A stretch of 64,000 nucleotides of DNA from a virus (IMGVR_UViG_3300012663_001306:32001-96000); one strand, 5' to 3'. Shown: positions 4,721-63,988, numbered from the stretch's first letter. The notes: generated by a model from the sequence alone, not told the origin. Made by a program: numbers and translations.

Positions 4721-5914
4721 TTAGATAAACCACGTTATAATTGAGTAACGAGTACCGCTGGTCACAGGCAATATTTCATGGGGAAACATAAAATTACTAG
4801 GGAACATTATTACTGAACCTTTTTTCAAGCTATACTTTAATTTTCTATCAAAGAAAGCAAATTCGCCACCTTCGTAACTGTCATTTATTGCAATTGAACA
4901 CGATACTGCTCTAGGCTGAAGTTTATAGCTATCAGTGTGTGTTGTATAAAAACACCCAGTCTTATATTCTAGTAGTTCGTATCCGCTGTCTTCCTCTATA
5001 CGTGCTTCTGGAAATTTTTGATTATACATTCCAATAGCTTTGTTAGTTACTTCCCAAAGTTTATCGTCTAAATTTTTTCGAACCGGTTGGTTTTTTTCAA
5101 TAACGGGCTGGCTAGATAACCCAATCTGATTAACATTTCTAATAGATTTGTTAATAACTCCGTGTCCAACACTTGCTTCGAACCAATCTTCGCAATTTTT
5201 ATATTCTTGTAAAATTTCATCACATAATTCATCAGAAATTAAATTTTCAAAGATACATATATAATCTTTCAAAGATTCGACATGATTACCGACATTAATT
5301 TTTTGAGGCAAATTATTAGAAGGAGATACAAGACCGTCTATAGACTTATCATGCTGTCCCGGCAAATTATTAGTTTGAGCTAATTTGTTATCAAAGTATG
5401 CCCAGGAATTGGGTCCTCTGCTTCTTACATAATGTAAAAATACTTGAACATACTCTTTACCCTTGAATTTTTCTCTCCAATGATCTGCTTCACATCCTAG
5501 ATACATCATTGCATCTCCAGAATCTAAATCTAAAGAAACACTTTCACCGTTGGGTTTTTCTATCCAAATTGGCCAATCTTCATCTTTAGAAAGATGCAGA
5601 GTTAGACTAATGTCACACGCTTCTCGATCACGATGTTTAAGGAGCTCCGATCCTTCTTTATATACTCGTGCGTAAGCGTATGTCGGTAGTACAGTCTCTC
5701 CTAAAAACTTACTAACTTCGGGAGTTTTTTCACACAATAATTCTAGAAAACTTATATAATTATAAGATTTTGATGAATTAGGTGCTTGACTATCGCCGGT
5801 TAAATTATTTTTAGTAGAAAATTTTATAAATTCTTTTGCTAACTCGCAAGCACGTTCGTTAGAAATAAAATTTTTAATATATACAAAATTGGCCGCTTGG
5901 ATATGTGGGTTCAT
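4721..5914 (-). CDS. Two-domain 2OG-Fe(II) oxygenase (prolyl-4-hydroxylase/PKHD-like)
   Basis: Domain 1 has YARVY..KHRD..HWR. Domain 2 has HTD..GGEF..FPHEILPVTSGTRYSIITWF. Start moved to ATG 5914 (ATGA overlap with the upstream gene). Confidence 0.85.
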   Translation of the reverse strand: MNPHIQAANFVYIKNFISNERACELAKEFIKFSTKNNLTGDSQAPNSSKSYNYISFLELLCEKTPEVSKFLGETVLPTYAYARVYKEGSELLKHRDREACDISLTLHLSKDEDWPIWIEKPNGESVSLDLDSGDAMMYLGCEADHWREKFKGKEYVQVFLHYVRSRGPNSWAYFDNKLAQTNNLPGQHDKSIDGLVSPSNNLPQKINVGNHVESLKDYICIFENLISDELCDEILQEYKNCEDWFEASVGHGVINKSIRNVNQIGLSSQPVIEKNQPVRKNLDDKLWEVTNKAIGMYNQKFPEARIEEDSGYELLEYKTGCFYTTHTDSYKLQPRAVSCSIAINDSYEGGEFAFFDRKLKYSLKKGSVIMFPSNFMFPHEILPVTSGTRYSIITWFI

Positions 5915-6183
5915 ACAGTCTCTGGGGGAGGATTTTTTATGTATTGTTCTTCCCACTTGGCTATGCATTTTACTGCCCAATCGGGAAAATCAGCAACACT
6001 GTTTAAGGGAGGATTGGGTCTAGTATCTCTATACTCAATCCATCCACTACCGTTGCGGAATTGCAAAGCGTGAATATCATCAGGTATTCCACAATCGGAA
6101 AAATCAAGTTCATGGTACACCCAAGTGTCTAGGTATACTTGTTTGTCATCTACAATTATAGTGTATCTATTACTCTCTACCAT
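5911..6183 (-). CDS. Hypothetical protein, possible tail-fibre assembly chaperone
   Basis: 90-aa ORF (IHALQF..GWIEY) directly downstream of fibre genes; function inferred from position only. Confidence 0.55.
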   Translation of the reverse strand: MVESNRYTIIVDDKQVYLDTWVYHELDFSDCGIPDDIHALQFRNGSGWIEYRDTRPNPPLNSVADFPDWAVKCIAKWEEQYIKNPPPETV

Positions 6184-8401: not shown

Positions 8402-8968
8402 TTAATTCTTTGTTGCTATAATAATATCTACATATTTAACGGCCATGTTAACTGTTCCGGTAACGGGTCCACCAGCTACAGTTCCCCCTGGATGACTGTG
8501 AGACCCATCTGATCCACCAGGGCCGCCCGCTATAGCCGGCTGGCCATACGTTGATACAGTAGTTTTAACAACACCAACATTCAATGGGCTAACTGACGGG
8601 CCCGGCGCCAATCCAAATGCACTTCCTCCAGGTGAGGAAGAAGTAGAATGAGAATGGGATGGTATATATGTTTGAGAAATTGTAAATGCACCTGCGCTTA
8701 CTGTTAATGGGCCAACACTGCCAGTAGCTTGCCTGGAACTGTAAATAGTAGTGAAAGGGGACAATCCGCCACCAGTAACCCCACCTGGGCCGCTCACTAT
8801 TCTTACTGCACAATTATCAGCAGTAGTAACTCTCGTCCATCCAACGGGCGCAGATGTTTGTCGGAACAGCATAGTCTGTCCTGTAAATTCTGGTTCTGCA
8901 TACCAACTTGAAATTAAATAAAAATCTGAGCTTGCTATGCTGGTAACTGGTCTAATTCGCCCTGGCAT
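8402..8968 (-). CDS. Tail-collar-like short fibre protein
   Basis: FRQTSAPVGWTRVT..AVRI, SHSH twice, VKYVDIIIA; start moved to ATG 8968 (TAAATA 5 nt upstream, avoids overlap). Confidence 0.75.
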   Translation of the reverse strand: MPGRIRPVTSIASSDFYLISSWYAEPEFTGQTMLFRQTSAPVGWTRVTTADNCAVRIVSGPGGVTGGGLSPFTTIYSSRQATGSVGPLTVSAGAFTISQTYIPSHSHSTSSSPGGSAFGLAPGPSVSPLNVGVVKTTVSTYGQPAIAGGPGGSDGSHSHPGGTVAGGPVTGTVNMAVKYVDIIIATKN

Positions 8969-8979
8969 ATTTCTATTTA

Positions 8980-11961
8980 TTATCCATATGATGCGTACTG
9001 ACCCAATACGACCCAGGTAGACGAATCTCGAACTAATGAATAACTTATCATATCCACTCGATTGGCGGTTCCCGTTGGGACTGCCCCTTGATTCCATTTA
9101 ACAGTTTGGCTGGCACCATTAACTTGTATTGCAGTTGATGATAGTGTGGGCATATAAGGTGTAGCACCCTGATTGATATACAATACTACAACATTAGCAA
9201 GCCCGTTGGTTGTTGGCACATTGGTAAAGTTTGGAGTAAAGTTGCCGGCAGGACTACTAATGTAAAATACCTGAGCCGCGCTAAAATCATAAGTTACTGT
9301 TCCTGTTGCTCCAGACGATGGGGTAAAACTATCTGAAGTAGTGCTGGTATATCCCATACAACCGGTGTAACCAATGCCCGTGCTACCTGTGTATGCTTGA
9401 CTACCCGTGTAACCAAATGATCCACTATAACCAAAGCTACCAGTATAACTTTGACTACCTGTATACCCTAAATCACCTGTTCTTGTGAAATCTATAGCAA
9501 GAGCTTGACCATTGGTAATTGCGGTACTACCCGAAATGTAGGTTATGCCAAGTATCCAGTAGGTCGCGCCACCGCCTGCTCCTGTTACAGATGTTATTGC
9601 AAATACTGTAGTACCTACATTAATAGAATCTACGTTCTTAACTGTTAGGTATCCTCTATTTGTGGGGTTAGTACTATTGGCCCAGGTAGAAATAAATGCA
9701 GACATAGAAGTAGCATACGAATCATTAACGTTGATGTAGGCCACAGTGGCTAAACTTAGATTAGTATTACCAAATCTTAAACTACCATTTGTTCCTGCGC
9801 CGGCTGTAATTGTGTTATCATAGTAATATCTTAATCCGCCGCGATCGCCAACACTTCCACTATAACCAAAACTACCAACAAATCCAACACTACCGCTGTA
9901 GCCTAAATCACCTGTTCTGAAAAAATTAAGAGAAAGCTGTTCACCTGCGGCGCCAAATACTCCTGATAGATATGTTACCCCTAGGGTATAATACGTGGTA
10001 TTGTTAACTACATTAGTAACAGTAAACAATATAGATGTGGTACTTTGTTGTCCGGTTCCTTTAACTAATAAGGCACCTTTATTTGTGGGATTTGTACTAG
10101 TTCCCCATGTGCTAATATAACCGCTGGTTACGATGCTGTTAACATCGTTAACATTTATAAAAAGTTGAGTAATGCTAGAAGCCGTTCCGCTGTTGCCTCT
10201 TAGACTTCCTGGATTAGTCACACCTGCAATAGTTGTTGTGCTATCGTAATAATATCTTATACCGCCACGATCGCCATTACTACCATTATAGCCAAAGCTA
10301 CCAGAATATCCAAAGCTACCTGTGTAACCAAATGATCCCACAAATCCTTTTTCACCTGTATGGATAAATTCTATTGCCAACGGTTCGTTACTTGGTAACG
10401 CTGTTACACCGGAACCAGCTACATACGCCACTACTACTGTATAATACGTTGTGTTGTTGGTTACACTGGTAACATTATATAACAAAGAACCTGCGGTAAC
10501 ATGCGATACCGGTTTTATGTATAACTGTCCTTTAATTGTAGCGGTTGGATTAGCACTACCCCACGTAGCAAAGTAAGAGGCAAAACTTACACCGTTACTA
10601 TCATTAACATTAATGAATATATTTGTAACAGCAGTCATATTAGATGTGTTATATCTTATACTACCGTTGCTAGAAACACCAGCAGCAAACTGAGTTATAT
10701 CGTTATAGAATCTTAATCCACCCCGGTCACCGGTGCTTCCTGTGTAACCAAAGCTACCAGTGAATCCTATTATACCTTGACTACCTGAAAATCCTCGTTC
10801 ACCAGTTCTATAGAACTCAACTGAAATTGCTTCGTTTGGAGGAGGTTGTGCTCCTGAAACATAAGTTACTGTCAAGGTGTAATAAGTGGTATTGTCCACT
10901 ATTGAATTTACTTGCCATATAGATTCTTGTGTAAGAAATGAGCTAACACATTTTACAAGCAGATAACCTTTTATAGGACTGGTGCTGTCATCCCAGGTTG
11001 CAATAAATGATTGTATATTTGTACCATTAGAGGTAATTTCATTAATCCAAATTGTATTAGCTACCGAAAAAGTAGGACTACTAAATCTCATACTACCGTT
11101 TGAACTAATACCAGCACTGGTGAATCCCGAATCGTAGTAATATCGTAACCCCCCTCTGTCACCTGCACTACCAGTATAACTTTGCGATCCTGTAAAACCA
11201 AAGCTACCCGTGTAACCAAAACTACCACTATATCCTCTCTCGCCAGTGAATACAAATTCTATGGCCAACGGCTCGTTTGCTGATGGAAAAGTTCCACTTA
11301 CATAGGTTACTGTTGCTGTATAGTAAGTAGTAACGTTTGTGACCGCGGTAATATTCCATAATGATGCAGCCGCAACTGATGGAGAAGTTGATTTAACATA
11401 TAACTGCCCCTTAATAATATTGTTGGGATTATTAGTTCCCCATTGGGCAATAAATGCAGAAAAACTAACACTATTAATATCAAGAACGTTTACAAATATT
11501 GACGTAACAGAGCCAATTGTGGCATTGTTAAATCTTAAACTACCTGGAGTAGTTACGCCTGCGGTTATTGTAGTATCGTAGTAGTAGCGCAAGCCACCTC
11601 GATCGCCTGTACTACCGGTGTAACCAACGCTACCAACAAATCCTGTTGCACCCCTACTACCAACCCAACCTACAGAACCTGTAAAACCTATACTACCAGT
11701 AAAACCAATTGCGGCAAATGCCCCCATACTACCGGTATAGCCCCCACTTCCAGTAAAAGCCTGGCTACCTACAAATCCTTGACTACCTACAAAAGATCGA
11801 GAGCCTGTATAACCTAACGCGGCAACTTGACCACTACTGCCTGTATAGCCAGTAATAAAATTGCCGTTGACAATCCAGGCACGACCATTCCACTGCCAGG
11901 TTCTAGTTCCTGATGTGTATAGTTGTCCTGTTAAAGGTGATAGTGGAAAATTAACTGGCAT
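8980..11961 (-). CDS. Fibre protein with five ~120-aa DRGGLRYY repeat modules joined by collagen-like GxxGS linkers
   Basis: 993-aa ORF; N-terminal FPxSPxxGQxY..WxWxGxxW motif; C-terminal phage fibre-type beta domain. Confidence 0.8.
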   Translation of the reverse strand: MPVNFPLSPLTGQLYTSGTRTWQWNGRAWIVNGNFITGYTGSSGQVAALGYTGSRSFVGSQGFVGSQAFTGSGGYTGSMGAFAAIGFTGSIGFTGSVGWVGSRGATGFVGSVGYTGSTGDRGGLRYYYDTTITAGVTTPGSLRFNNATIGSVTSIFVNVLDINSVSFSAFIAQWGTNNPNNIIKGQLYVKSTSPSVAAASLWNITAVTNVTTYYTATVTYVSGTFPSANEPLAIEFVFTGERGYSGSFGYTGSFGFTGSQSYTGSAGDRGGLRYYYDSGFTSAGISSNGSMRFSSPTFSVANTIWINEITSNGTNIQSFIATWDDSTSPIKGYLLVKCVSSFLTQESIWQVNSIVDNTTYYTLTVTYVSGAQPPPNEAISVEFYRTGERGFSGSQGIIGFTGSFGYTGSTGDRGGLRFYNDITQFAAGVSSNGSIRYNTSNMTAVTNIFINVNDSNGVSFASYFATWGSANPTATIKGQLYIKPVSHVTAGSLLYNVTSVTNNTTYYTVVVAYVAGSGVTALPSNEPLAIEFIHTGEKGFVGSFGYTGSFGYSGSFGYNGSNGDRGGIRYYYDSTTTIAGVTNPGSLRGNSGTASSITQLFINVNDVNSIVTSGYISTWGTSTNPTNKGALLVKGTGQQSTTSILFTVTNVVNNTTYYTLGVTYLSGVFGAAGEQLSLNFFRTGDLGYSGSVGFVGSFGYSGSVGDRGGLRYYYDNTITAGAGTNGSLRFGNTNLSLATVAYINVNDSYATSMSAFISTWANSTNPTNRGYLTVKNVDSINVGTTVFAITSVTGAGGGATYWILGITYISGSTAITNGQALAIDFTRTGDLGYTGSQSYTGSFGYSGSFGYTGSQAYTGSTGIGYTGCMGYTSTTSDSFTPSSGATGTVTYDFSAAQVFYISSPAGNFTPNFTNVPTTNGLANVVVLYINQGATPYMPTLSSTAIQVNGASQTVKWNQGAVPTGTANRVDMISYSLVRDSSTWVVLGQYASYG

Positions 11962-15000: not shown

Positions 15001-17498
15001 CTTAATACATTGGCAGTTGTAATTTCAAGTCCGAACTCGCCGCCGGCGTTCCAATTTTGTACAATTCCCCTAAGTGTGCCACTAGTGCTGGGATTAATCC
15101 ATGCCTCGATGGTAAAATCTTGATCAGTAAATGGAATTTGAACTGTACTAGACAGGTACCCAGCACCGCCAAATTGTACAGCAAATAAAGAGCCTAAACT
15201 AAACGCAGTCACTCCTGATCCAGCAATCGTTAACGTTTGTCCACTGCTTTCTGAGGTTGCTGATGCAGAACTACATGCTAAAAATACATATGCTGGAGAA
15301 TATGCTGAAATTCCCGTTGCTACGTTAACTATAAAATTTTCAGGACCCTCAGTTAGTAAATCCTCGGCGCTAGTTATTGAAAAACTACCTACACCACTAA
15401 CCATGGTAAAACTTCCAACCATTTGAGTAAAATCAGTTGAAGTAACTGGACTAACTCCCACTGTAGTATCGATAGCCCAGTACAATTTTTTTCCAGTTGG
15501 AAAATTCTCTGTGTTTACAGTGAATGTTACACTGTCGGCTTCGTTCATAACCGTTTTACTGGCAATCAACGGATATACAATTGGAGTCCTACTAGAATCA
15601 AAAACAGTAATCGACGGGGAGGCTGCTACTGGATTTAATCTCGTTATATCGGTATATAGTATTACTGTAAATATTACATTGCCCTGTGTAAAACTGTCTA
15701 ATCCAAATACATTAAGTGTTGCGGTATTAAATGATGCAGTATTAGAGTTAATTGTTATACTACCTGTAGTTGTTCCAGTTATTGGGCCAACTTGAGGGAT
15801 CAATGCATAATACAAAACAGTACCATCTGCAACGTTAGTAGTGGTCACAGTAACATCCACGGTAGAACCTTCAGGAATTGCAGTAGAAGCGGGCGATATT
15901 GAATAAGTAGGATTAGTATCTGAACCTACATCATAGTCTGAAAACAATCGAGTATCTCCGGGCCACACTATTCTTACGGCTCCTGGCCCGCCAATAGCAC
16001 CGAAATAACTGCTACCACCCCCGCCTCCACCAAATTTTATATCCGATGAGGCTAAGACTGCACCAACCGCGGAACCTGCGGGCAATAATTGATATGCACG
16101 GTTTGGTGCAACTGACGGGAACGCTTCTACAAGGGCACTTGCAGTACAAATGCCTGAAAATCCAGCGCCGTTCCTAGCATTCACACCAATTTGTATGTCT
16201 ATTCTAGATGGCTGGTTTTCATAAAACCACGCTTCCCAAACCATGTTGGGAGATCCCAGCGTACCCGAAGTCCCTGCCGTACCTTCATAACGTACTCTAT
16301 ACACTCTATTAGGTGTGGTCCCACTCTGAACTCCAGCATACACTCGTTGATAAGAATTGTCAGCGGAGTCAATCATTATTTTAGGAATACCGGGAGCCGC
16401 TGCGTTCAGTGGTTGAAATTGTCCAGATCCCGAGCCAAAGGTTAGATAACTATTTGATCCTACAAATACAGAGGTATATGACAAACCAGCATAAAGTACA
16501 CTCCACGGTAAATTAATTTGGACAAAAGTATCATCAGCTGACGCATTTACAACCAGCGTTAAACTAGTAACAGCAGGAAGATTAAGAGCTATGCTAGTTA
16601 TCTGAGTGGTGGCAACAAACTCGGCAAACGGAATACTTCCAGAATAGCCATCGAATGTTGCGGCAAGGGCGGTGCTGGCGGCACCATCGACACCTCGTCC
16701 GAAAAGGCCTACCCCACCACCTTTAGAGGCGCTTTGATTTATTAACACAACTGTAGGATAGTTTGGGCCGCCCCCTCCACCACCGGAGGCAACTCCAGCG
16801 GCTGAACCAGCGCCACCTGAAGGATTTGATGCAGTCCCAATCGCACTTGCATTAATAGATCCATTACCACCAGGACCATTATATCCACCAGCACCACCTC
16901 CTCCTGCGCCAGACATTATGTAATTAGTTGTCCCAGGATGTATGGCATTTGCGCCACCGGCACCACCGGCACCACCGCCAATTCCTACAATTATTTGTCC
17001 ACCACTTCCTGTAGAAACTGAGCTTGGCGGGCCAGGAGTATATCCTGTAATACTATTGGCTAATCCACCTTTTCCGCCTCGGCCTCCACCGGCACTAACA
17101 ATAACCTCAGTTGAAGTAGTTCGATATATATACGAATCTCCTCCGTTGCCGCCATTATTGGGATTATTAACGGGCCATGTTGAAGAATTACTTATAGCAC
17201 CGCTTGTTCCGCCGGCGCCGACTACCACTGTAAGTGATTCTCCTGGATATACAGGAATATTATTGTTATAGGCAAGGGCGCCACCCCCACCTCCACCTCC
17301 ACCGATCACCCCAGTCGAAACATTGATGTATACGGCGGCGCTGCCGCCACCGCCACCACCGCCAACGGCAACTACAGAAATAGAATTCACTCCAGCAGGC
17401 ACCGTAAAAGTGGTAGTAAATGGTGTACTAAAACTTGTGGTGTATTGAACACTACCCCTTGCTTTTTTATTATATCTTGGTATTAAAAACCCGCTCAT
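12021..17498 (-). CDS. Large adhesin/fibre protein: three glycine-rich domains, LamG/concanavalin-like domain, C-terminal beta-propeller-like repeats
   Basis: 1825 aa; DFTIEAWINP..HVAVVRNG..LYVNG (LamG); repeated PAGVxSxSxVxVGxGG..GAVRIxW; C-terminal repeats ending in TAWN/IAWD. Confidence 0.8.
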   Translation of the reverse strand: MSGFLIPRYNKKARGSVQYTTSFSTPFTTTFTVPAGVNSISVVAVGGGGGGGSAAVYINVSTGVIGGGGGGGGALAYNNNIPVYPGESLTVVVGAGGTSGAISNSSTWPVNNPNNGGNGGDSYIYRTTSTEVIVSAGGGRGGKGGLANSITGYTPGPPSSVSTGSGGQIIVGIGGGAGGAGGANAIHPGTTNYIMSGAGGGGAGGYNGPGGNGSINASAIGTASNPSGGAGSAAGVASGGGGGGPNYPTVVLINQSASKGGGVGLFGRGVDGAASTALAATFDGYSGSIPFAEFVATTQITSIALNLPAVTSLTLVVNASADDTFVQINLPWSVLYAGLSYTSVFVGSNSYLTFGSGSGQFQPLNAAAPGIPKIMIDSADNSYQRVYAGVQSGTTPNRVYRVRYEGTAGTSGTLGSPNMVWEAWFYENQPSRIDIQIGVNARNGAGFSGICTASALVEAFPSVAPNRAYQLLPAGSAVGAVLASSDIKFGGGGGGSSYFGAIGGPGAVRIVWPGDTRLFSDYDVGSDTNPTYSISPASTAIPEGSTVDVTVTTTNVADGTVLYYALIPQVGPITGTTTGSITINSNTASFNTATLNVFGLDSFTQGNVIFTVILYTDITRLNPVAASPSITVFDSSRTPIVYPLIASKTVMNEADSVTFTVNTENFPTGKKLYWAIDTTVGVSPVTSTDFTQMVGSFTMVSGVGSFSITSAEDLLTEGPENFIVNVATGISAYSPAYVFLACSSASATSESSGQTLTIAGSGVTAFSLGSLFAVQFGGAGYLSSTVQIPFTDQDFTIEAWINPSTSGTLRGIVQNWNAGGEFGLEITTANVLRFFYTNAASGISTISVIGTTPISLNVYTHVAVVRNGGDLRLYVNGVADIISGTRNSVYNIGNDILYYYNGATKNLIIGIGADFVGYFTGVITQLRIVNGKAMYTGTSFSLPTTVTGQQAYTTPGTYIWVAPAGVTSVSAVCVGAGGGGFRDGGGGGGGALAWANNIAVVPGQSYTVVVGAGGTAGPTATAGGNSYFMETNVIRANGGSAGVNTSGVLGGAGGGYFISGVFVSQGGGYGGAGGAFNVSATTFLGGAGQTGAGGGGGGAGGYAGAGGNGGAADFGPGGLGAGGGGGGGGTTNQVYGNGNGQPSGGAGGGVGIFGQGANGNGGVGVSSYASAGGGGGGGSGGNAGGNGTANLTGGNVGGMGGSYGGGGGGSTGSGNSGGYTRGDANNVGFGGAVRIMWGPGRAYPATLTVDQPFFSALSYSISTDRTVTSSPVMTLVDTSVSLGKRDISSMSLYTTWTPISGGGIQGQVAFTTTGTYLWTAPAGVGNVHVVAVGAGGIQDSSPSAPTGAGGGGLGWKNNIPVIPGQSYTVVVGRGSIGFVGIGDGDSYFISRDIVKGGGGSGLFLSGTIGNGGSYTGDGGGNGGRGGISSGAPSAGGGGNGGAGGYNGNGGLGGTDRGTPGTGSGGGGGGGGAGGVGYVGWNGGGVGIFGQGANGLPGVYGNPGVGASGGAGSGGAGVLYGAGFPVTASSIKPQGAVRIIWGAGRAFPSTLTTDQSNTSFTYFSPYYLNPSANPRITGVAWKPDGTIVYISMITQRVFSSVYSFPVTTAWNIATAIAPTGSRIDWTTSLHTGLMFNPTGTAVYFLGNQGASKTVQQFPLTTAWNISSMGTGVNVSADYVPNTASLDGMCFGNNGTYIYVTSTANNLGYLGRATMPTPYSISSISGVNVWAPYINLPQATNPTGITFSNEGLYMYITDGTTDRIYVYLLSIAWDHTSAAYTGVSYDLRRLGDNVTSMVSSGYLRPGGNDFYVVDGYNSKIAQFKLSN

Positions 17499-55215: not shown

Positions 55216-55542
55216 ATGATAACTATTACCGAAACCGCTAGAAACAAAATACTTAAATTGCTGGCAAAAAGAGGAAAAGGAGTAGGAATCCGTCTGGGTG
55301 TAAAAACTACAGGATGCAGTGGGCTGGCATATACTTTAGAATATGTAGATGAATACACTATAGAAAACGGTATTACTAATTATGCACAACAGGATTTTGT
55401 AGTTTTAGTAGATGCAAAGTCTGATGCTTACTTAAAAGGCATGACAGTTGATTGGGCAAGAAACGGTCTTAATGAAGGATTTGAATTTAAGAATCCCAAT
55501 GAGAGAGATAAGTGCGGGTGTGGAGAATCTTTTAGAGTTTAA
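55216..55542 (+). CDS. iscA: Fe-S cluster assembly protein IscA
   Basis: RGKGVGIRLGVKTTGCSGLAY..GLNEGFEFKNPNERDKCGCGESF; start moved to ATG 55216. Confidence 0.93.
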   Translation: MITITETARNKILKLLAKRGKGVGIRLGVKTTGCSGLAYTLEYVDEYTIENGITNYAQQDFVVLVDAKSDAYLKGMTVDWARNGLNEGFEFKNPNERDKCGCGESFRV

Positions 55543-56009
55543 TCAAATTCTTCTAAAGAAAATGTAATACTTGCCCGTGGACTATCCGGTATAGCACAAT
55601 GTAATAATCCTGGAAGGATATATAACATTTGATTTTCTTGTAATACAAATTTAGAATCTTCAACTTGCCATAACGTATCGCCTATTATTTGCCATACCCA
55701 TAAATGTTGTCCAGGATCTTTATGTAAATCAAATGTTTTACTAGTTGGTGTTGTTCCTGCATATAGTCCTGCTCTAGCATAATAATTTGGTAACAATGGT
55801 TGTAGAAAATCCAGTACATCTTTACAATACGGATCTTGATCTAATCCACCTAACGTAAATCCACCTTCTCCAAAATTTCTATAATACAGTTTGTTTATGC
55901 TTGTTTGATGTTTGACCAAAGAATGTATTTTATCCCATGTCCATTTGTTAGAATCTAACGTGTGGTCTACAACTCCCCAACGGACATTGAAAGATGTAGT
56001 ATCAATCAT
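55539..56009 (-). CDS. Minimal JmjC/ROX-like cupin oxygenase
   Basis: FDLHKD..WQIIG..W..L..MLYILPGLLHCA (HxD..H triad). Confidence 0.75.
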   Translation of the reverse strand: MIDTTSFNVRWGVVDHTLDSNKWTWDKIHSLVKHQTSINKLYYRNFGEGGFTLGGLDQDPYCKDVLDFLQPLLPNYYARAGLYAGTTPTSKTFDLHKDPGQHLWVWQIIGDTLWQVEDSKFVLQENQMLYILPGLLHCAIPDSPRASITFSLEEFD

Positions 56010-56758
56010 AACTCTTCTTCAACTCGATCCCAAAATAATATTCTAGCTTTAATAGCTTCAACAGCAGTCTGCTCTGCTTCTACTATTTTAGTAGGGCTGT
56101 AATCGCACAGTTCGTTAATTAAGTTCAGTGCGGCCGGCCCATGTTCTTCTCCGTCAACTTCTATATGCCTATCTAAATAATATAAAAATCTGTTAGCGTT
56201 CAATGAATTAATATCAAGCTGATTTACGAGTCTTCTAAACATTTGCGGAATAACAGTTTCTCGGCCGTAAGTAAAGGCGGCGGCAATTTCATGTGCTTTG
56301 CCGCGTCTAATGATAGTAAAGGTAGAATTCATAAATTCTTTGCTAGGTGCAGGAATATATATGTTATCTAATGCCCAATCTAATCCGTTAGTTTCTACTG
56401 AGCTTAGGAAATTGGTTATAGGTGCAACATTTGCTCCAATTTCTAACATAGCCTGGCAGTAAAGATCAAAATGGGATAAGTGATTACCGTTAAACGGATC
56501 AACATCACTTTCTTCTGCTAAAATAATTTCGTTGATCAACCTACTGGATGTACGCTGTATCCTAGTAGGAATCCAAAGGTCACCGCTTGGGCATATTCTA
56601 TGTTGTAGTGCTTTAGCAAGACTCATAAAATCCCATACAGCATACACATGATGTTCCATGAATATCCGTAGATCTTCAATTGATTGAATTGTGTTGGTTA
56701 CCAGTAAAGAATGATTCTCTAACAGTACCCTATGTTGTTCAATTATTGACTGGCGCAT
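56006..56758 (-). CDS. DUF3050 family heme-oxygenase-like (putative di-iron) protein
   Basis: FMEHHVYAVWDFMSL, LINEIILAEESD, SHFDLY..AM, GRETVIP, YLDRHIEVDGEEHGP. Confidence 0.85.
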   Translation of the reverse strand: MRQSIIEQHRVLLENHSLLVTNTIQSIEDLRIFMEHHVYAVWDFMSLAKALQHRICPSGDLWIPTRIQRTSSRLINEIILAEESDVDPFNGNHLSHFDLYCQAMLEIGANVAPITNFLSSVETNGLDWALDNIYIPAPSKEFMNSTFTIIRRGKAHEIAAAFTYGRETVIPQMFRRLVNQLDINSLNANRFLYYLDRHIEVDGEEHGPAALNLINELCDYSPTKIVEAEQTAVEAIKARILFWDRVEEEL

Positions 56759-58067
56759 TTATAGATTCTATCCCCATTTCTAGCAACTCTACTTCTTGTC
56801 CAAATAATAATTCAAAGGCTTTGTGCTGTATGGCGCCGTTCCATACTTTTTCTACTCTACAGTTTTGTAGGAACACGTTATCTGGGAATGTTATAGGACA
56901 ACTAGACTTGCACAGTCTACGTACACTACAATCAGAACAATGAGTTTTCTTTCTGTTAAGATCTAATTGTATAATGCGGATGCCTTTTAAGTTATCAATT
57001 TTACCTGCAATAAATTTTTCGCTTGTATGCGGACACAGTCTTACATTTCCTTGGACATCAACTGATAGCACATCTTCGGCATCTGCTCCACACCCTGTTG
57101 TCATTGTTACAGGTACTTGATGTTTAAGTGTGGCAGCATAGTCAAGAACTCCGCCCTTGCCATCAAATATATTTGTTTCTAAGAACTCTCGATTTTTATT
57201 TCTTCCGTGAGTCTTTAGTTGTTTAATGCACTCGTCAATATAGCTATTCATTGTATGTTTGAAGTTTGCTAGGTCTTCTCCAGATATAACATGATCAGCA
57301 CTATTTTGTGAATTAGTCTCGTCATAAATTCTAGCCATTGTATAACTTAATTTGACATTTTTAAGATTGAGTTTTTCTGCAACATCTCTAAAATATTTGT
57401 TAATGCCAAACATATCATAGTTGGTTAAACTTATAACAGTATTAAAGCTAAACTGTACATGAGGATACATGGTGTCTAATCGTTGCAATGTTTTAGCCAC
57501 ACTAGACTTATCAAATATGTCTTCGCCACGTAAAGATTCTTGTCCAGGACCGTCGTGGCTTATTCCCATAGTAATTTTTGATTCTAGCGTCTCAAAAAAG
57601 TCAGCATGTTTATCTCTTAGTGGACTACCATTAGTAGATATATAGAAATGACGTCCTGCTTTATCTAAGTGTTTCATAACTGGCATTATGTCATTCCAAT
57701 ATAGGAACGGTTCTCCGCCCCAAAGCTCTATGCGTTCTAAGTTTTCAAGGTCAAGATAAGTATCGATTGATTTAATAAATGCATCCAGATTGGTGTTCTT
57801 TTTTTGCTCTTCTGGATTACCAATGTCTTTCTGCATACAGTAAGAGCAACTATAGTTACAGGCCTGCCCAAACAAAATACGAATAGCTGTTGGCTTATTA
57901 CTTTTCTTTCTAGAGCCATGCACTTTGCTAGCTTCTTCATAGAAAGAAATATCTTTCTCCGGAGGAAGCGTTAATGGTTCGCCTAGTTCGTTGTATATGG
58001 CATTATTATTAATTTCATAATAGATAATGCTGTTTGATTGTTTTAATCTAAATTTGGAATAGCTCAT
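56739..58067 (-). CDS. Radical SAM/SPASM domain protein
   Basis: CNYSCSYC, LWGGEP, STNG, ISHDG; SPASM cysteines GCG..C..CSDC..C..C..C. Confidence 0.93.
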   Translation of the reverse strand: MSYSKFRLKQSNSIIYYEINNNAIYNELGEPLTLPPEKDISFYEEASKVHGSRKKSNKPTAIRILFGQACNYSCSYCMQKDIGNPEEQKKNTNLDAFIKSIDTYLDLENLERIELWGGEPFLYWNDIMPVMKHLDKAGRHFYISTNGSPLRDKHADFFETLESKITMGISHDGPGQESLRGEDIFDKSSVAKTLQRLDTMYPHVQFSFNTVISLTNYDMFGINKYFRDVAEKLNLKNVKLSYTMARIYDETNSQNSADHVISGEDLANFKHTMNSYIDECIKQLKTHGRNKNREFLETNIFDGKGGVLDYAATLKHQVPVTMTTGCGADAEDVLSVDVQGNVRLCPHTSEKFIAGKIDNLKGIRIIQLDLNRKKTHCSDCSVRRLCKSSCPITFPDNVFLQNCRVEKVWNGAIQHKAFELLFGQEVELLEMGIESINAPVNN

Positions 58068-59122
58068 ATTTTACTTATTATTGGTATAACCTGGTCTGTT
58101 TTTAACATTCCAAATTTTGTCATTGTCCACCCTAGCTCTTGAAGTTTATAAAAAAATCTCGACTTGTTAGTATACATGTAGTATGGTATAAAAGTAAAGT
58201 TTTTATTAACGGTGTATTCTAAGGTTGTTTTGTAGTATTCTCTAAACTTTGGATTGATAACTCTATTTTTCCAACTATCGTAATGGTATTGTTTGCTCGT
58301 AAGCATATCAGTCATAAAGCTAGAATGATCAAACCCGTTAGTAATTAAATGAAACGGATCAATAGTTAAATTACTAGCATCGTCGCTTGAAAAATAAAAT
58401 CTATCGTTATATAGATGTATAGACTCCCTATAAATTTGCATCAATCCGCTATTGTCGTTTACAACCCACGTATTTTGATATTCGGCATAGTCTTGTTCTA
58501 ATATTTCTCTGTTGTTTGTTCTAAAATCGTGATGCACACAATTATGTAATCTATGCTTTTTAGTAAATTCAATTAACTCTTTGAAGATAGTAGGATTACC
58601 GCAGTCTATATATTTGATTTTTTGTATTCCGTACTTATCGTATAGTTTACCTAATGTATCAAGTACTTTATCAACACCCACTTGTTCTAAAAATTCTGTG
58701 CTTATAGAGATATCGCCCAGGGTTTTTATCTTAATATCTAAGTCAAGTATTCGGAAGATTGCGTTATCAGTAATACATACTTCAAACAGGTGTCCGTGGG
58801 TTTGATACCATTTGTAGTGGTTAGGAAAATTATATTTTAGATAATACAAGTCATCATTTGTCCTAACAGATCCAAAGTAATCAAATATTTCAAACCACGT
58901 AGATTGCAAACTAAAATCATCTGTAAAAATTTCATTTACTAAATCTTTAGTTTTAGCCAAATTGTCTTTTATGTAACATACTTTACAACCTGCGCCACAA
59001 TAGTATCTTTTACCTAAACTAAAATACAAGTCGTGATCAAGAGAACGAAGGCAATCTTCCTTAATCCAATAGTCAGCTAAACTATCGTAGCCGTCAAAAT
59101 TATCTCTGTTTGTATTTTGCAT
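58064..59122 (-). CDS. Divergent radical SAM-like protein without SPASM
   Basis: YYCGAGCKVCY (CxxxCxxC), ITDN, ISIS; no GGEP and no C-terminal Cys cluster; start ATG 59122 (TAAATA 6 nt upstream). Confidence 0.65.
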   Translation of the reverse strand: MQNTNRDNFDGYDSLADYWIKEDCLRSLDHDLYFSLGKRYYCGAGCKVCYIKDNLAKTKDLVNEIFTDDFSLQSTWFEIFDYFGSVRTNDDLYYLKYNFPNHYKWYQTHGHLFEVCITDNAIFRILDLDIKIKTLGDISISTEFLEQVGVDKVLDTLGKLYDKYGIQKIKYIDCGNPTIFKELIEFTKKHRLHNCVHHDFRTNNREILEQDYAEYQNTWVVNDNSGLMQIYRESIHLYNDRFYFSSDDASNLTIDPFHLITNGFDHSSFMTDMLTSKQYHYDSWKNRVINPKFREYYKTTLEYTVNKNFTFIPYYMYTNKSRFFYKLQELGWTMTKFGMLKTDQVIPIISKI

Positions 59123-59137
59123 AATCAATATTTACAA

Positions 59138-60256
59138 TTAAGAAATAATCTTAAAGTCTTCTTGGATTCCTACCCATTCTAAGATATTTTGTTTTTGATT
59201 TAGCTTTGATACATGCATTATAACAAAGTCCATATATGTATAAAACTCCTTGCATTTTGTACCTGGCTGTTCGTTGAACATATGATACAAATACTTTAAT
59301 CCGCAACTAGGACGCTTTTTACAGTTCATACAACTATCGTATATTCTTCCAGCATCGCCTTGATTTTTCCAAATTTGCTTGTTTCGCCAATCACCTATAC
59401 GAGCATCAACAGTTTTGTATTCTAGAAAATCGAACTCGGGATAAATGAATCCATCTGGTGAGAGTATTAATTTGTTATGCTCTGAAAAGTATGCTTTATC
59501 AACCATAGTATAACATCCGTCAATATATACAGATATCTTTTTAACATAGAGTATCTGAATAAATTGCAAAAAGGCATCTAAAAATTGTACTAAATCTAAC
59601 TTATCAATTATAACGTCAAACTTATCTTTACCTCTTCGATGCCTTAACGGAATAATATTAATAGATCGGCATCTAGTTTTATAACAGGTACTAACAATAT
59701 CTTTTATGTTGTCTAATGAAAAAGAGTTTGGTTGATCAATGGGTAACACGCATTGCCATTGCCACTTAATTTTATTTCTATTAAGTACTGTTGACATTTC
59801 TACAACATCAAACGATTTTCTATTAGTAGCTTGATGCATAAAATCGTAACTGACTGTTACATATAATACATCTGCGTATTGATCAAAGAAGTCTTCAGTC
59901 TCTTTAACTAATGAGCCGTTTGTAGTTACAGTCAATTGCCAGTTGTTCTTTTTTAAGATAGGATATAACCATAACATTATTTCCTTCATTCGAGTTATAA
60001 AGAGCAAAGGCTCGCCGCCGTGAAATGATACACGTTCTACTTCATTTGGTTGAAGGGCAACCCATTCTATAAACTCTTTGATATCTTGAGAAGTATCTCG
60101 AGTTAAGTTTTGCCCTCCTAGATTTGTAATATAGTCTCTATCGCAATATGTACAATCAAAATTACATGTGTTACCTAAGTAGATAACAACCATCTTTATT
60201 TTATCTAGTGGTTGAATGGGTATGAGATTTATTTTTTGATTCAATAAGTCGTTCAC
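59138..60256 (-). CDS. Radical SAM protein with degenerate SPASM domain
   Basis: CNFDCTYC, FHGGEP, TTNG, VSYD; C-terminal CMNC..C..C, with IYPE in place of IYPC; start uncertain (GTG 60256 or ATG 60193). Confidence 0.88.
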   Translation of the reverse strand: MNDLLNQKINLIPIQPLDKIKMVVIYLGNTCNFDCTYCDRDYITNLGGQNLTRDTSQDIKEFIEWVALQPNEVERVSFHGGEPLLFITRMKEIMLWLYPILKKNNWQLTVTTNGSLVKETEDFFDQYADVLYVTVSYDFMHQATNRKSFDVVEMSTVLNRNKIKWQWQCVLPIDQPNSFSLDNIKDIVSTCYKTRCRSINIIPLRHRRGKDKFDVIIDKLDLVQFLDAFLQFIQILYVKKISVYIDGCYTMVDKAYFSEHNKLILSPDGFIYPEFDFLEYKTVDARIGDWRNKQIWKNQGDAGRIYDSCMNCKKRPSCGLKYLYHMFNEQPGTKCKEFYTYMDFVIMHVSKLNQKQNILEWVGIQEDFKIIS

Positions 60257-61961
60257 TAAATGTACCTTGATAAGTTTTATGCATGGATTGTAAAAATATC
60301 ATATGCAGTAGGCAAAGATAGAATGCACGTTGATACAAGTTTTCAGCTTTTATCTTATTATCAATTGGAGCAAGATTTCCTTTTTTAACAACATAATAGT
60401 AAAAGTCATCAACTTCTTCTGTATCGCTAGTAATCAGAGCTTTGAGTTCTTCTACAAAATTATCCTTGCTGAAGTTAGGAGTAATCTCATCATTGATAAT
60501 CTTTTTCCATACGGCAAGCAATGTTCTATAATCTGCAATCTCGTCCATATTAACATGAACTTTATCTATTAGCGGATGGAAATTAAATGTGTAGTAGAAC
60601 ATCAAATATACCAAACCTTTAACATAGGGATGATTCTCTTCGCTAGATTCTACTGCGCTACAAATGCTTTCGTATTTTTTCTTAAATTGTTTTTTAGCAA
60701 TATCTTCCTGCAAGTCTAGATATAGCTTCACAATCTTTTGGCACATGTCGTCTGGGCGAAACATTCTAGATCCGGTATCTAAGTTTCCAGCAGGGCATTG
60801 ATAACATGCGTTCTTCAAATCACATGTTTTGCATTGTTCCTCTTCTTCAAACATTTTAGAATATTCTACTTGGAAGTACTTGTACCTGTCTATATAAAGA
60901 TTATCTTGGAATAGATTACCTAGTATAGTTTCCGAAGTTGCGCCAGCCTTTTGGTTAGTAAAGAAGTAGCATCCGCTCCAGTCTCCGCTTGCATCGATGG
61001 CAATCATGTCAGATCCTATCATGCAGTTTTCTTCACCTTTCTGTCCAACACCTTCTGAAAAATGTATTTGGAAATCTGCATATTTGTCTAACACTGCTAA
61101 AATATCTCTATGTAGGTTATTCCATTCGCTATCGGACCAGCGGATGAAGCCTTTGCTAGAGTCCAGGATCAGCGGATGTACTACCATCCTTCTAATGCCC
61201 CTAGTATACAAATGATCAACGAACTCTGTAAAATACGGAGCATTTTCTCTTGCTAGAGTGCATCTAATAATAATACGCTTTTGTTGCTTAGGACCATCGG
61301 GCATATAACTAATGAAGTCCATAATTTTATTAATCTTGTCTTGCCCAATTTCTCTATGATCAACTTCGCTTCTATCTGTATCAAGCGATAATAAGATATA
61401 CGTGAAATCATAGTTTAGAAATTCGTCTAATAATTCTTTAGTAAACAATAACCCGTTAGTAACCATACCAACAACAGTGTTAACATCACCACGGCTATTT
61501 TCTTCTAGCTCTTTTTCATTTTTTCTTACAAAGTCTAAGATAATATCTTTATGAATTAACGGCTCTCCGCCAAAGAAATTAAAGACTTTCTTTTGTCTTT
61601 GATTTGCGTTAACTAAGAATCTATATGCTTGAAGTAAACTTTCGTTAGTAAATCTTCCAAAATCTTTATTATGCTGTTCGTAGCAGTATGAGCAGGATAG
61701 ATTGCAAGCGTTGGTTAAAATTAAATTTAGTTGCTTAAGGTCTTGGAACAAATAGTTAGCTGATGAAATAGATACAACTGTTTCATCTACTTTAGGTACT
61801 ACTGAAATTAGTTTATTTGCTTTTTCTAATCCTTTGGGTGTAATAATATTCTTAGTTTCAAATCGTAGCGAACCGTCTTCAGATGTAGTCACCGAAGCCT
61901 TATGATCTTCCAATCTTTTCTTTTGAGTTTCGTTCTTAATCCAAATTACACTATTGGTCAT
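60201..61961 (-). CDS. Radical SAM/SPASM peptide-maturase-like protein with C-terminal helical extension
   Basis: CNLSCSYC, FFGGEP, VTNG, SLD; NCMIG..GCYFF..CKTC..C..CPAG..C; ATGA-coupled to the peptide gene. Confidence 0.93.
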   Translation of the reverse strand: MTNSVIWIKNETQKKRLEDHKASVTTSEDGSLRFETKNIITPKGLEKANKLISVVPKVDETVVSISSANYLFQDLKQLNLILTNACNLSCSYCYEQHNKDFGRFTNESLLQAYRFLVNANQRQKKVFNFFGGEPLIHKDIILDFVRKNEKELEENSRGDVNTVVGMVTNGLLFTKELLDEFLNYDFTYILLSLDTDRSEVDHREIGQDKINKIMDFISYMPDGPKQQKRIIIRCTLARENAPYFTEFVDHLYTRGIRRMVVHPLILDSSKGFIRWSDSEWNNLHRDILAVLDKYADFQIHFSEGVGQKGEENCMIGSDMIAIDASGDWSGCYFFTNQKAGATSETILGNLFQDNLYIDRYKYFQVEYSKMFEEEEQCKTCDLKNACYQCPAGNLDTGSRMFRPDDMCQKIVKLYLDLQEDIAKKQFKKKYESICSAVESSEENHPYVKGLVYLMFYYTFNFHPLIDKVHVNMDEIADYRTLLAVWKKIINDEITPNFSKDNFVEELKALITSDTEEVDDFYYYVVKKGNLAPIDNKIKAENLYQRAFYLCLLHMIFLQSMHKTYQGTFSERLIESKNKSHTHSTTR

Positions 61962-62173
61962 ACAGTTCCACGGTTACAGTTACATTGACATTGACAGTCA
62001 CATACTGTGGTATAATCATCATAAAATATATGATTATGCGTGGCAAGGTTGTTCAAAATTGTTAACATAGTTTGATAATTTTGTTGACCAATGATGGTTG
62101 TATTTGCAACAGCATCAGCCGGTGGTTGGACACCATCGGCCCAGTCGTTTACGTTTTCAGTATTTTCTGCCAT
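61958..62173 (-). CDS. Cys-rich small protein, putative radical SAM substrate (RiPP-like precursor) ending CDCQCQCNCNRGTV
   Basis: 71 aa; AAGGAG SD; acidic N-terminus; CxCxCxCxC tail; stop overlaps the rSAM start. Confidence 0.8.
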   Translation of the reverse strand: MAENTENVNDWADGVQPPADAVANTTIIGQQNYQTMLTILNNLATHNHIFYDDYTTVCDCQCQCNCNRGTV

Positions 62174-62184
62174 ATATTTGCTCC

Positions 62185-63111
62185 TTAAATTTTATGTACT
62201 ACATATTCTCTGTAGAATCTATTGGTCTTATTTAATGCTACATCCATTGCTGTAGCAGTGTTCCATCTTAGATATAGATAACCAACAGAATTATCAACTG
62301 TTATTTCAAACTGATTGTTATTTCTAGTAACTGGAAAGTTTGTAGTACATTTGACTTTGGCGTTGTCAAATAAATCAGTATCAGATAAATGCAGTCTTAT
62401 AAACCAATTATCAAAGTTTGAAACTGTAAACTTGTCTCCAGTTACTAACAATTGATTTCCTACTATTTTTACATTTTTAGAAAATCTAGGCTGAAATAAT
62501 GTTTCGTTAAGATTATTACCATGATTGTCTATAGAATGTACAAAGGTGTTATCGTCTATTCGTCCACTTAGATTTGCAGATTCTTGTATGGCATAATGAT
62601 TTAATACAATGTAATAGATGTCTGCATCATTAGTTTTATAAACTAAAAACCAGGGAATGACATCAAAATTTTCAGATATAGTTTCATTGTTTCGATGATC
62701 TAACATTAATCCGTTATCTAGTCTACTAAAATATCGAGTACCTTCTATAGCACTTTTTTGATCTGTTGCGTCAGCTAACGGAGCTCCAAATAATAAAATC
62801 TTACACTGAGGACGCCTGTCCTTAATTTTTTCGTATTCATCTACTATATCTTGTAAATTGATAGATATAGATGGTAACAGATCGGCTGTGGTATAAGGCC
62901 TAGTTAAACATATATCAGATTCAACTCCTGCCGACAGCACAAATCTAGTATCTACGTTTCTAAAAAAAGATATTCTTGCAGTTCGGTATGCATCGGTATT
63001 CAGACTAGAAAAGTACCCTAGGCCTGGTTCTGGATTTAGATTATATGTGCTCTCCGCGTCATCCCACATACTTGAAAATCCTTGCCCGGTTTGGAAAAAA
63101 AATGCTCTCAA
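62185..63111 (-). CDS. Hypothetical protein
   Basis: 308-aa ORF, TTG start, tightly packed in the operon. Confidence 0.7.
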   Translation of the reverse strand: MRAFFFQTGQGFSSMWDDAESTYNLNPEPGLGYFSSLNTDAYRTARISFFRNVDTRFVLSAGVESDICLTRPYTTADLLPSISINLQDIVDEYEKIKDRRPQCKILLFGAPLADATDQKSAIEGTRYFSRLDNGLMLDHRNNETISENFDVIPWFLVYKTNDADIYYIVLNHYAIQESANLSGRIDDNTFVHSIDNHGNNLNETLFQPRFSKNVKIVGNQLLVTGDKFTVSNFDNWFIRLHLSDTDLFDNAKVKCTTNFPVTRNNNQFEITVDNSVGYLYLRWNTATAMDVALNKTNRFYREYVVHKI

Positions 63112-63120
63112 TTTGTTTCC

Positions 63121-63576
63121 TTACGCCGATGTTCGATCAACGATACCGTGTCTATGATATCTTAGAGTTTTAATCCTAGTGTTCATTGCATTGTAGTCGC
63201 TTGCTCTAATAACTCCAGCTTGCTTAAAATCACCACCGGTCGCTGGGCCTGCGCCGGTGAGTGTATCGCCGGTTTGAACTCCGTATGCGTAACCTGTATT
63301 TCTGCCACCAGGAGTATAGTAATTATTTCGGTCTCCTGCACTTGGGTTATCACCGTACCCTGCACCATATGTAGCTAATTGATATGCATCGGTATATTGG
63401 TGGTAGTGCCCAGCCATTGAAGTAATTAGACCTTTTATAGCATTTATATCTGAATAATAAATTACTTTACCGGCACCTACGTTCCCCTGTAAGGTAGGAA
63501 TTTGAGATTGGTATGCAAGATTTCCTAAAGGATGAATTATGCTATACGCGGCACGGGGTACTTGTCCTGTTGGCAT
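63121..63576 (-). CDS. Hypothetical, probably virion-associated protein with two helix+HxH motifs
   Basis: 151 aa; VIxxSDxNA..HYH..D and ..HRH..D repeats. Confidence 0.7.
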   Translation of the reverse strand: MPTGQVPRAAYSIIHPLGNLAYQSQIPTLQGNVGAGKVIYYSDINAIKGLITSMAGHYHQYTDAYQLATYGAGYGDNPSAGDRNNYYTPGGRNTGYAYGVQTGDTLTGAGPATGGDFKQAGVIRASDYNAMNTRIKTLRYHRHGIVDRTSA

Positions 63577-63577
63577 T

Positions 63578-63988
63578 TTAGTTCTCCACTATAAGTGTTT
63601 CAGTATATACTGTACTGGTACTAATTGACGGTGATAATACATAAACTACCTCTCCGTCAACATCAAAATTGTCAAATAATAAATTTACAACATTTTCATC
63701 GTAAAATGATTGTATTTCAGCTACATCAGTAGACTGAAGTATGTGTCCAAAATTAGTTAATAAGGAATCTTTTACTGATTGATCAATTGCGGTGTCTGCT
63801 AGAAAATCTGGAAAGATAATTTTGAGATCTGGGGATATAATTCTAATATTACTAGGAACATCGTCATTGCCCGTGAATCCTAAATGTTCTACTAAATCTT
63901 TTATTTCGTCTGTAATAACTTTAACAATTCGTTGACCTTCTACCGGAGTATCAGTAATGTTAACCAACGGAAATTCTTTACGCTTCAT
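63578..63988 (-). CDS. Hypothetical acidic protein
   Basis: 136-aa ORF abutting the next gene, GGAG SD for the downstream gene in its 3' end. Confidence 0.7.
   Translation of the reverse strand: MKRKEFPLVNITDTPVEGQRIVKVITDEIKDLVEHLGFTGNDDVPSNIRIISPDLKIIFPDFLADTAIDQSVKDSLLTNFGHILQSTDVAEIQSFYDENVVNLLFDNFDVDGEVVYVLSPSISTSTVYTETLIVEN

Follow-up and report, generated by a model that had tools for sequence, protein, structure and literature searches.

A helix and His-x-His unit common to a Cys-tailed small protein and its two-unit partner in a radical-SAM cassette of large phages

We describe a gene cassette in a 64,000-nucleotide stretch of viral DNA (positions 32001-96000 of the IMG/VR record IMGVR_UViG_3300012663_001306; hereafter the window) in which two nearby genes encode proteins sharing a unit of about 30 residues, a predicted helix followed by a His-x-His (HxH) motif. 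A Cys-tailed protein of 71 amino acids (aa), here called the peptide, carries the unit once, and a 151-aa protein, its partner, carries it twice. Profile comparisons across related viruses indicate that the helix+HxH unit is a genuine homologous module in both proteins. The cassette was found again in 48 loci from large phages that are uncultivated, and two cultured Ralstonia phages, RP12 and RP31, have it as well; it comprises the two-unit partner, the one-unit peptide with its (C-x)4-6 tail, a beta-rich protein of about 300 aa and four radical S-adenosylmethionine (SAM) proteins. We propose that the two units of the partner and the single unit of the peptide form a three-unit bundle with a six-histidine (His6) metal site that docks the peptide to the partner, and that enzymes resembling PapB and CteB cross-link the Cys tail; we put the probability of this reading, in which bundle and site are inferred, at roughly 0.45. 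The virus record from which the window was taken spans 114,408 bases at an estimated completeness of 32%, and its source is therefore a very large phage.

An earlier note on this DNA had proposed that the front half of the peptide aligns without gaps to two segments of the 151-aa protein. The three segments lie where that note placed them, all on the minus strand, and their 28 residues align without a gap, each segment carrying His at positions 20 and 22 and Asp at position 26. Taken within the window, the match between the two proteins is not significant (BLASTP E 0.051 over 16 residues), and this value is what speaks for a chance likeness of three short helical segments ending in HxH. The likeness holds, however, at the profile level and across classes. 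The peptide has 33 relatives in a large protein collection, and the resulting family of 34 sequences combines variable N-termini with a near-invariant second half (M36, L40, H46, H48, D52, D53, Y54, T56, C58, C60, Q61, C62, C66, R68, G69 and T70), within which H46, H48, D52, D53 and Y54 are invariant. The family of the 151-aa protein (40 sequences) keeps H57, H59, D63, G71, H141, H143 and D147 without exception. Profile-profile alignment of the two families with hhalign gives a probability of 87% and an E value of 3.7e-6, placing residues 20-55 of the peptide on residues 31-66 of the partner. A hidden Markov model (HMM) built from the protein copies alone recovers 40 of the 44 peptides at E<1 among 5112 open reading frames (ORFs) and almost nothing else, the reverse model built from the peptides recovers 26 of the two-unit proteins, and some peptide-protein pairs are linked directly by BLASTP (8e-7 to 4e-6 over 45-51 residues). 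With both genes also co-occurring in all informative loci, chance resemblance is exceedingly improbable and is refuted by the comparative data.

The unit can be written as I-x-A-x-D-h-N-x-L-x3-h-N-x-h-x2-H-x-H-x-h-x-[D/E]. In the peptide and in the first unit of the partner the shared motif extends further, to H-x-H-x-aromatic-x-D-x-Y, and is longer than the version first noticed. The motif HMM found no further copy in the ORFs of the window or in 19 kb beyond it; on this ground we rejected the possibility that the window's giant proteins contain the unit too. No model for the unit exists in Pfam, in NCBIfam or among annotated PHROGs, and searches of the PDB found no relative.

The number of units is constant. 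Scanning IMG/VR with the peptide profile yielded 44 loci, and in every one of them the peptide adjoins genes homologous to those of the four radical-SAM proteins, to the extent that the contig covers them; a homologue of the 308-aa protein is present in 41 of the 44, a DUF3050 protein in about half, and a two-unit small protein lies just upstream in nearly all. Under a strict count, exactly one protein with exactly two units was found in 43 of 45 peptide-found loci, the two exceptions being loci where upstream sequence is missing or the ORF is truncated. A second, motif-blind scan with the 354-aa marker protein of the cassette brought up new contigs (L058, L059 and L071), and these show the 2+1 pair wherever upstream DNA is present. 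Single-unit proteins lacking a Cys tail did not turn up. Because the genes for peptide and partner co-occur in every locus with upstream sequence, we regard them as functionally coupled. The constant 2+1 count also means that a hetero-assembly of peptide and partner fits better than separate homotrimers. The earlier claim that the 'leader-like' half of the peptide shares a module with the 151-aa protein has accordingly been borne out as regards homology and gene coupling, while its extension to a homotrimer of each protein has not, as the 2+1 count favors a hetero-assembly.

Representatives of the partner family were collected independently of the motif, through a full HMMER search of 1.84 billion proteins with no motif filter, which yielded 149 representatives. 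Exactly two HxH motifs occur in 140 of them; a stricter count of HMM domains assigns two units to 127, one to 21 and three to a single chain (P0178). Both H are invariant across the set, and the position six residues on is D or, rarely, E. The family amounts to about 280 clusters at 50% identity.

The cassette is, in practice, phage-only, as judged from the sequence collections searched. All ESM Atlas neighbors of the partner are viral hypothetical clusters, and the same resource returned nothing for the 308-aa protein. The peptide was found in one of 185,579 prokaryote species genomes; this lone match (L048, NCGL01000045.1, a 25,650-base contig of a Bdellovibrio sp. metagenome-assembled genome) has the peptide beside a two-unit protein and is probably a phage contig binned into the Bdellovibrio assembly. 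Among 50,697 GenBank phage records, tblastn with the window peptide, the 354-aa marker and their RP12 versions retrieved RP12 and RP31 only, and neither megablast of the 9-kb region nor tblastn of the 151-aa protein against the same records returned anything. The 65-aa Cys-tailed peptide gene of these two phages is unannotated in their GenBank records; it lies at L001:7962-8159 (RP12 82888-83085; RP31 also has this gene) and is flanked by ORF074, which encodes the two-unit protein, and by ORF075, which encodes the homologue of the 308-aa protein. The G+C content of the loci ranges from 32% to 53% and their flanking genes differ, from which we conclude that the cassette has spread over several phage lineages. 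A literature search found no description of it.

The Cys tail consists of (C-[DEQNA])4-6 followed by R-G-T, with every Cys preceding D, E, Q or N in most cases, or else A, and with the number of C-x repeats varying from four to six among relatives. The peptide ORF overlaps the start of the gene for a 586-aa enzyme with Radical_SAM and SPASM domains, an arrangement kept in 44 viral loci. This enzyme matches the PapB model NF047865 with 125.8 bits and the SCIFF maturase model TIGR03974 with 79.3 bits, reaching neither cut-off (340 and 425, respectively), and it also resembles CXXX-repeat maturases below cut-off. Among solved structures it is nearest to CteB (5WGG; E 2.2e-16). Its relationship to the PapB and SCIFF families, as these scores place it, is at superfamily level only, and the matches taken together show a lead enzyme of the thioether-forming peptide-maturase type, as far as sequence can assign it.

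The AlphaFold2 monomer of the partner, computed from the 40-sequence alignment, has a mean predicted local distance difference test (pLDDT) score of 73 and a predicted template modeling (pTM) score of 0.63, with helices at residues 19-32, 41-55 and 125-139 and a short strand at the HxH after each unit helix. Conservation after the helix alternates, positions i, i+2, i+4 and i+6 being H, H, hydrophobic and D/E, which is the pattern of a strand with one face predicted to be buried. Against the PDB the model gave only Foldseek matches with E>4 and, in a wide VIA search, a best Z of 5.4 to unrelated chains; the sole PDB sequence match of the profile search was discarded as a His-tag artifact. Cys is absent from 114 of the 149 partner representatives, and since the partner usually has none, it is not expected to be a substrate for Cys chemistry.

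Several partners carry additional domains grafted between or after their units. A beta-propeller lies between the units in P0125 and a glycine-rich domain (PF21722) in the 386-aa protein of L047 (7122-8282), while L032, P0126, P0167, P0174, P0096, P0145 and P0181 have Hint or beta-rich domains, beta-sandwich among them, behind their units, and further variants have beta-rich C-terminal extensions. Large domains being tolerated between or after the units, the two units behave as one folded anchor. A dedicated search for longer or fused relatives found none, which is weak evidence; fused forms did appear in the search for representatives. P0187 is also among the partners with a beta-propeller or glycine-rich domain between or after the units, and both kinds of inserted domain are types common in receptor-binding proteins. 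The C-terminal end is of the Hint (intein/Hedgehog) type in L032:8536-9894, P0126, P0167 and P0174, which suggests self-cleavage releasing a two-unit part with a reactive C-terminus.

Under the reading that we favor, the helices of the three units would pack as a three-unit bundle and the strand after each helix would turn its conserved face (H, H, hydrophobic, D/E) inward, so that the heterodimer would bring three HxH pairs into one octahedral six-histidine metal site. This site would dock the peptide onto the partner, which would serve as a holder presenting the Cys tail to the radical-SAM enzymes and would probably stay in the finished product. Judged by the neighboring genes and by the domains grafted onto the partner, the product would most likely be an accessory of the tail-fiber apparatus. 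Three gene orders place tail-fiber-like genes beside the cassette: one gene family (f4) flanks it on both sides in window-like loci, another (f9) does so in a second group, and YomR-like repeat proteins lie upstream of it in RP12 and L047. The window itself has a block of fiber-like giant genes at 8980-49613, with an island of iron enzymes lying between it and the cassette; the block includes ORFs of 993, 1825, 5483, 762, 666, 679 and 2114 aa, several of them with collagen-like or tail-fiber PHROG matches. From neighbors and grafted domains, a virion or fiber location of the product is possible but somewhat unlikely. The proposal in its fullest form is that the phage applies the radical-SAM chemistry of peptides that are synthesized on ribosomes and modified post-translationally (RiPPs) to a structural part of its own: a mini-protein that would be the third unit of a pseudo-trimeric His6 site, anchored to the tail-fiber apparatus and bearing a thioether-cross-linked Cys tail, with the homology of leader and partner providing docking free of a RiPP recognition element (RRE). 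With all these parts combined, we consider it rather unlikely.

A number of observations weigh against this proposal. The bundle and the His6 site are inferred, and neither sequence nor fold similarity was found to T4 gp12, T4 gp37, P2 gpV or any solved fiber, spike or other chain. The AlphaFold2 model gives the partner a third helix (19-32) that lacks an HxH, so that the partner might close a three-helix bundle alone, and the H-x-H-x3-D pattern might instead mark a site of recognition or modification. The fiber context is guilt by association, and in the window the nearest fiber-like gene is about 6 kb off, across the iron-enzyme island. Finally, virion mass spectrometry of RP31 lists none of ORF68-76 (Table S3, PMC5468394). 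This is the only virion proteome of a carrier phage; it covered excised gel bands, and the unannotated peptide was not in its search database, which makes the result negative but weak.

A more conventional explanation would take the unit for a classical leader, that is, the element bound by the radical-SAM maturases, with the two-unit protein as a second substrate, a decoy or a regulator and with the Cys core cleaved off as a free peptide, acting for instance against competing bacteria or phages. The layout of the locus agrees with it, as the short ORF abuts a SPASM radical-SAM gene whose product is nearest to the PapB, SCIFF and CteB maturases, and the 586-aa and 442-aa enzymes have 70-85 unassigned N-terminal residues (74 in the 586-aa enzyme), in which a recognition domain could be concealed. 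The NHLP and Nif11 families, moreover, provide a precedent for leaders that are homologous to full-length proteins. Yet a Pfam search found no PqqD/RRE match at E<=1 in any cassette protein, and no protease, exporter or immunity gene was recognized among the cassette genes with Pfam, PHROGs and NCBIfam. No cleavage motif separates the unit from the Cys tail, which it abuts, and unit and core are the most conserved part of the peptide, leaving the N-terminus free to vary. A structural role is favored over a cleaved leader because of this junction, the near-invariant C-terminal half and the lack of a recognized protease or exporter, and also because fiber-like neighbors occur in three gene orders and the partner may carry beta-propeller, glycine-rich or Hint domains. 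The near absence of the cassette from bacteria is unusual for an antibiotic-type RiPP, and the partner, which usually lacks Cys and may carry large folded domains, also speaks against this explanation. We consider the cleaved leader rather unlikely.

A version that goes back to the earlier note has the unit assemble each protein into a separate homotrimer, with Fe or Zn on the three-fold axis; both would be parts of the particle, and the Cys tails would be displayed in threes. Phage spikes and fibers are known to have HxH sites on three-fold axes (PMC4901313, PMC11705849), the hydrophobic spacing ahead of the HxH is heptad-like, and tail-fiber-like genes are neighbors. Two units in one chain, on the other hand, are hard to reconcile with a simple three-fold axis. 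The strict 2+1 count, like the three-unit chain P0178, argues for assemblies of three units, and RP31 particles gave no match; we regard homotrimers as distinctly unlikely. Very unlikely, in our estimate, is a small metal-handling protein with no virion role, whose His, Asp and Cys would bind iron or an iron-sulfur (Fe-S) cluster and which would act as carrier, store or electron donor for neighboring radical-SAM and oxygenase genes. In its favor, the cassette in the window abuts genes for IscU, IscA, a DUF3050 protein and a cupin and shares the window with a fusion of ferrochelatase and 2-oxoglutarate (2OG) oxygenase, and homologues of IscU and IscA occur near the cassette in L038 and L039 too. 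Fe-S assembly genes, however, adjoin the cassette in few loci only, the C-x-C-x-C spacing of the tail, its pairing with D, E, Q or N and its varying number of repeats agree with a substrate for cross-linking, and the two-unit partner and its grafted domains would be left unexplained.

Known systems offer partial parallels to the three-unit bundle that we propose. HxH metal sites have been described in the P2, phi92 and T4 spikes (PMC4901313), and one at the tip of T4 gp37 is cited elsewhere (PMC11705849). Like these sites (P2 gpV, phi92 gp138, the T4 spike and the gp37 tip), the unit has an invariant His-x-His in a short strand, predicted in our case, with the alternate-residue conservation expected of an axis-facing side; three HxH pairs per assembly would supply six ligands, and the setting is among fiber-like genes. 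It differs from them in showing no detected sequence or fold similarity, in having the HxH follow an alpha-helix instead of lying inside an intertwined beta-helix, and in drawing its three units from two chains (2+1) rather than from a homotrimer, with metal binding predicted. The proposed site would most closely resemble that of the receptor-binding protein of Staphylococcus phage phi11, in which six His hold an octahedral Fe3+ where a triple-helical bundle ends and continues into a beta-hairpin (PMC4901313). The order of helix bundle, His-based metal site (predicted here) and beta element is the same, and the beta-propeller platform of phi11 has a counterpart in the beta-propeller of the partner relative P0125; the phi11 protein (gp45), by contrast, is a homotrimer of 600-aa chains with a His-x7-His motif, and no homology to it was detected.

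On the enzymatic side, the cassette resembles ranthipeptide and SCIFF systems (PapB/PapA; CteB/CteA, 5WGG) and the targets of CXXX-repeat maturases in placing a SPASM enzyme beside a short ORF whose Cys-rich C-terminus alternates with Asp, Glu, Asn and Gln. It departs from them in scoring far under the family cut-offs (125.8 against 340), in having four radical-SAM proteins instead of one, in showing no detected RRE, protease or exporter, and in that its 'leader' is a folded unit common to the partner in a system confined to phages. A precedent is offered by the gamma subunit of quinohaemoprotein amine dehydrogenase, QhpC, a small Cys-rich protein that the radical-SAM/SPASM enzyme QhpD cross-links and that is then retained as subunit of a complex instead of being set free as a peptide. 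TIGR03906 is among the NCBIfam matches (E 3.5e-18 and 1.3e-13), but only at superfamily level (65 bits against a cut-off of 453); the cassette has no dehydrogenase subunits, and its biology differs. As in the NHLP and Nif11 families, the N-terminal part of the modified peptide is homologous to a stand-alone protein. The parent proteins of those families have an unrelated function and are encoded outside the cluster, whereas the homologous protein is here an obligatory neighbor.

The genes of the cassette form a single run on the minus strand, from 63988 to 55539, in which neighbors overlap or sit a few bases apart (Table 1). The run is more A+T-rich than its surroundings, with a G+C content of 34.4% over 55539-63988 against 41.0% for the whole window. 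The 71-, 136-, 151- and 308-aa proteins have no Pfam, NCBIfam or PHROGs match, save one chance-level match of the peptide. The model of the 308-aa protein (pLDDT 85) is beta-rich with an immunoglobulin (Ig)-like C-terminal domain; it is a structural homologue of RP12 ORF075 (E 2.7e-16, TM score 0.67-0.70), apart from which its structural matches are generic Ig-like ones, with no enzyme fold recognized.

Table 1. Genes and sequence elements of the cassette in window coordinates
Feature	Position	Strand	Remarks
136-aa protein, first gene of the run	63578..63988	-	22 related loci have homologues immediately upstream of the gene for the two-unit protein
151-aa partner protein, two helix+HxH units, no cysteine	63121..63576	-	Member of a virus-only family
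Partner unit 1 (residues 38-65; H57, H59, D63, Y65)	63382..63465	-	
Partner unit 2 (residues 122-149; H141, H143, D147)	63130..63213	-	
308-aa beta-rich protein, Ig-like C-terminal 100 residues	62185..63111	-	Homologue in 41 loci
71-aa Cys-tailed small protein ('precursor')	61958..62173	-	AAGGAG ribosome-binding site 8 nt upstream of ATG
Peptide unit, helix+HxH, one copy (residues 27-54; H46, H48, D52, Y54)	62012..62095	-	
Cys tail C-D-C-Q-C-Q-C-N-C-N-R-G-T-V (peptide residues 58-71)	61961..62002	-	
Radical SAM/SPASM enzyme, 586 aa	60201..61961	-	Top matches: PapB ranthipeptide maturase model and CteB (PDB 5WGG)
Radical SAM protein, 372 aa	59138..60256	-	
354-aa protein, invariant C-x3-C-x2-C (C44, C48, C51), phrog_36229	58064..59128	-	Marker specific to the cassette
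Radical SAM/SPASM enzyme, 442 aa	56739..58067	-	
DUF3050 (haem-oxygenase-like) protein	56006..56758	-	About half of the loci have it behind the enzymes
156-aa cupin/JmjC-like protein, final gene of the run in the window	55539..56009	-	Not a constant cassette member elsewhere

Gene content varies around this core. Three paralogues of the 308-aa protein are present in L023 (8651-12017) and two each in L034 and L041; L046 has a fifth radical-SAM gene (8420-9694) and L047 two DUF3050 genes (15828-17442). An aminotransferase-like gene (phrog_2736, E 1e-7) lies on the opposite strand between the two-unit and 308-aa genes at L004:7794-9068 (minus strand) and at the same place in about ten window-like loci, and is absent from the window. 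Elsewhere in the window, at 4721-5980, a 419-aa protein joins a ferrochelatase-like N-terminal half to a 2OG-Fe(II) oxygenase-like C-terminal half.

Peptide maturation by radical-SAM enzymes is known from bacterial natural products and from a few enzyme subunits, and the same enzyme type appears here in a cassette essentially confined to large phages, where the front half of the substrate is a copy of a module in its obligatory partner. The helix+HxH unit represents an undescribed protein family of about 280 clusters. If the 2+1 units do make one metal-bound bundle, they would constitute a new way to pair a modified peptide with its holder and would give the His6 sites of phage fibers a heteromeric counterpart, and the product might be the first virion part to be made by RiPP chemistry. 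RP12 and RP31, both cultured, have the cassette, which makes the idea testable at the bench.

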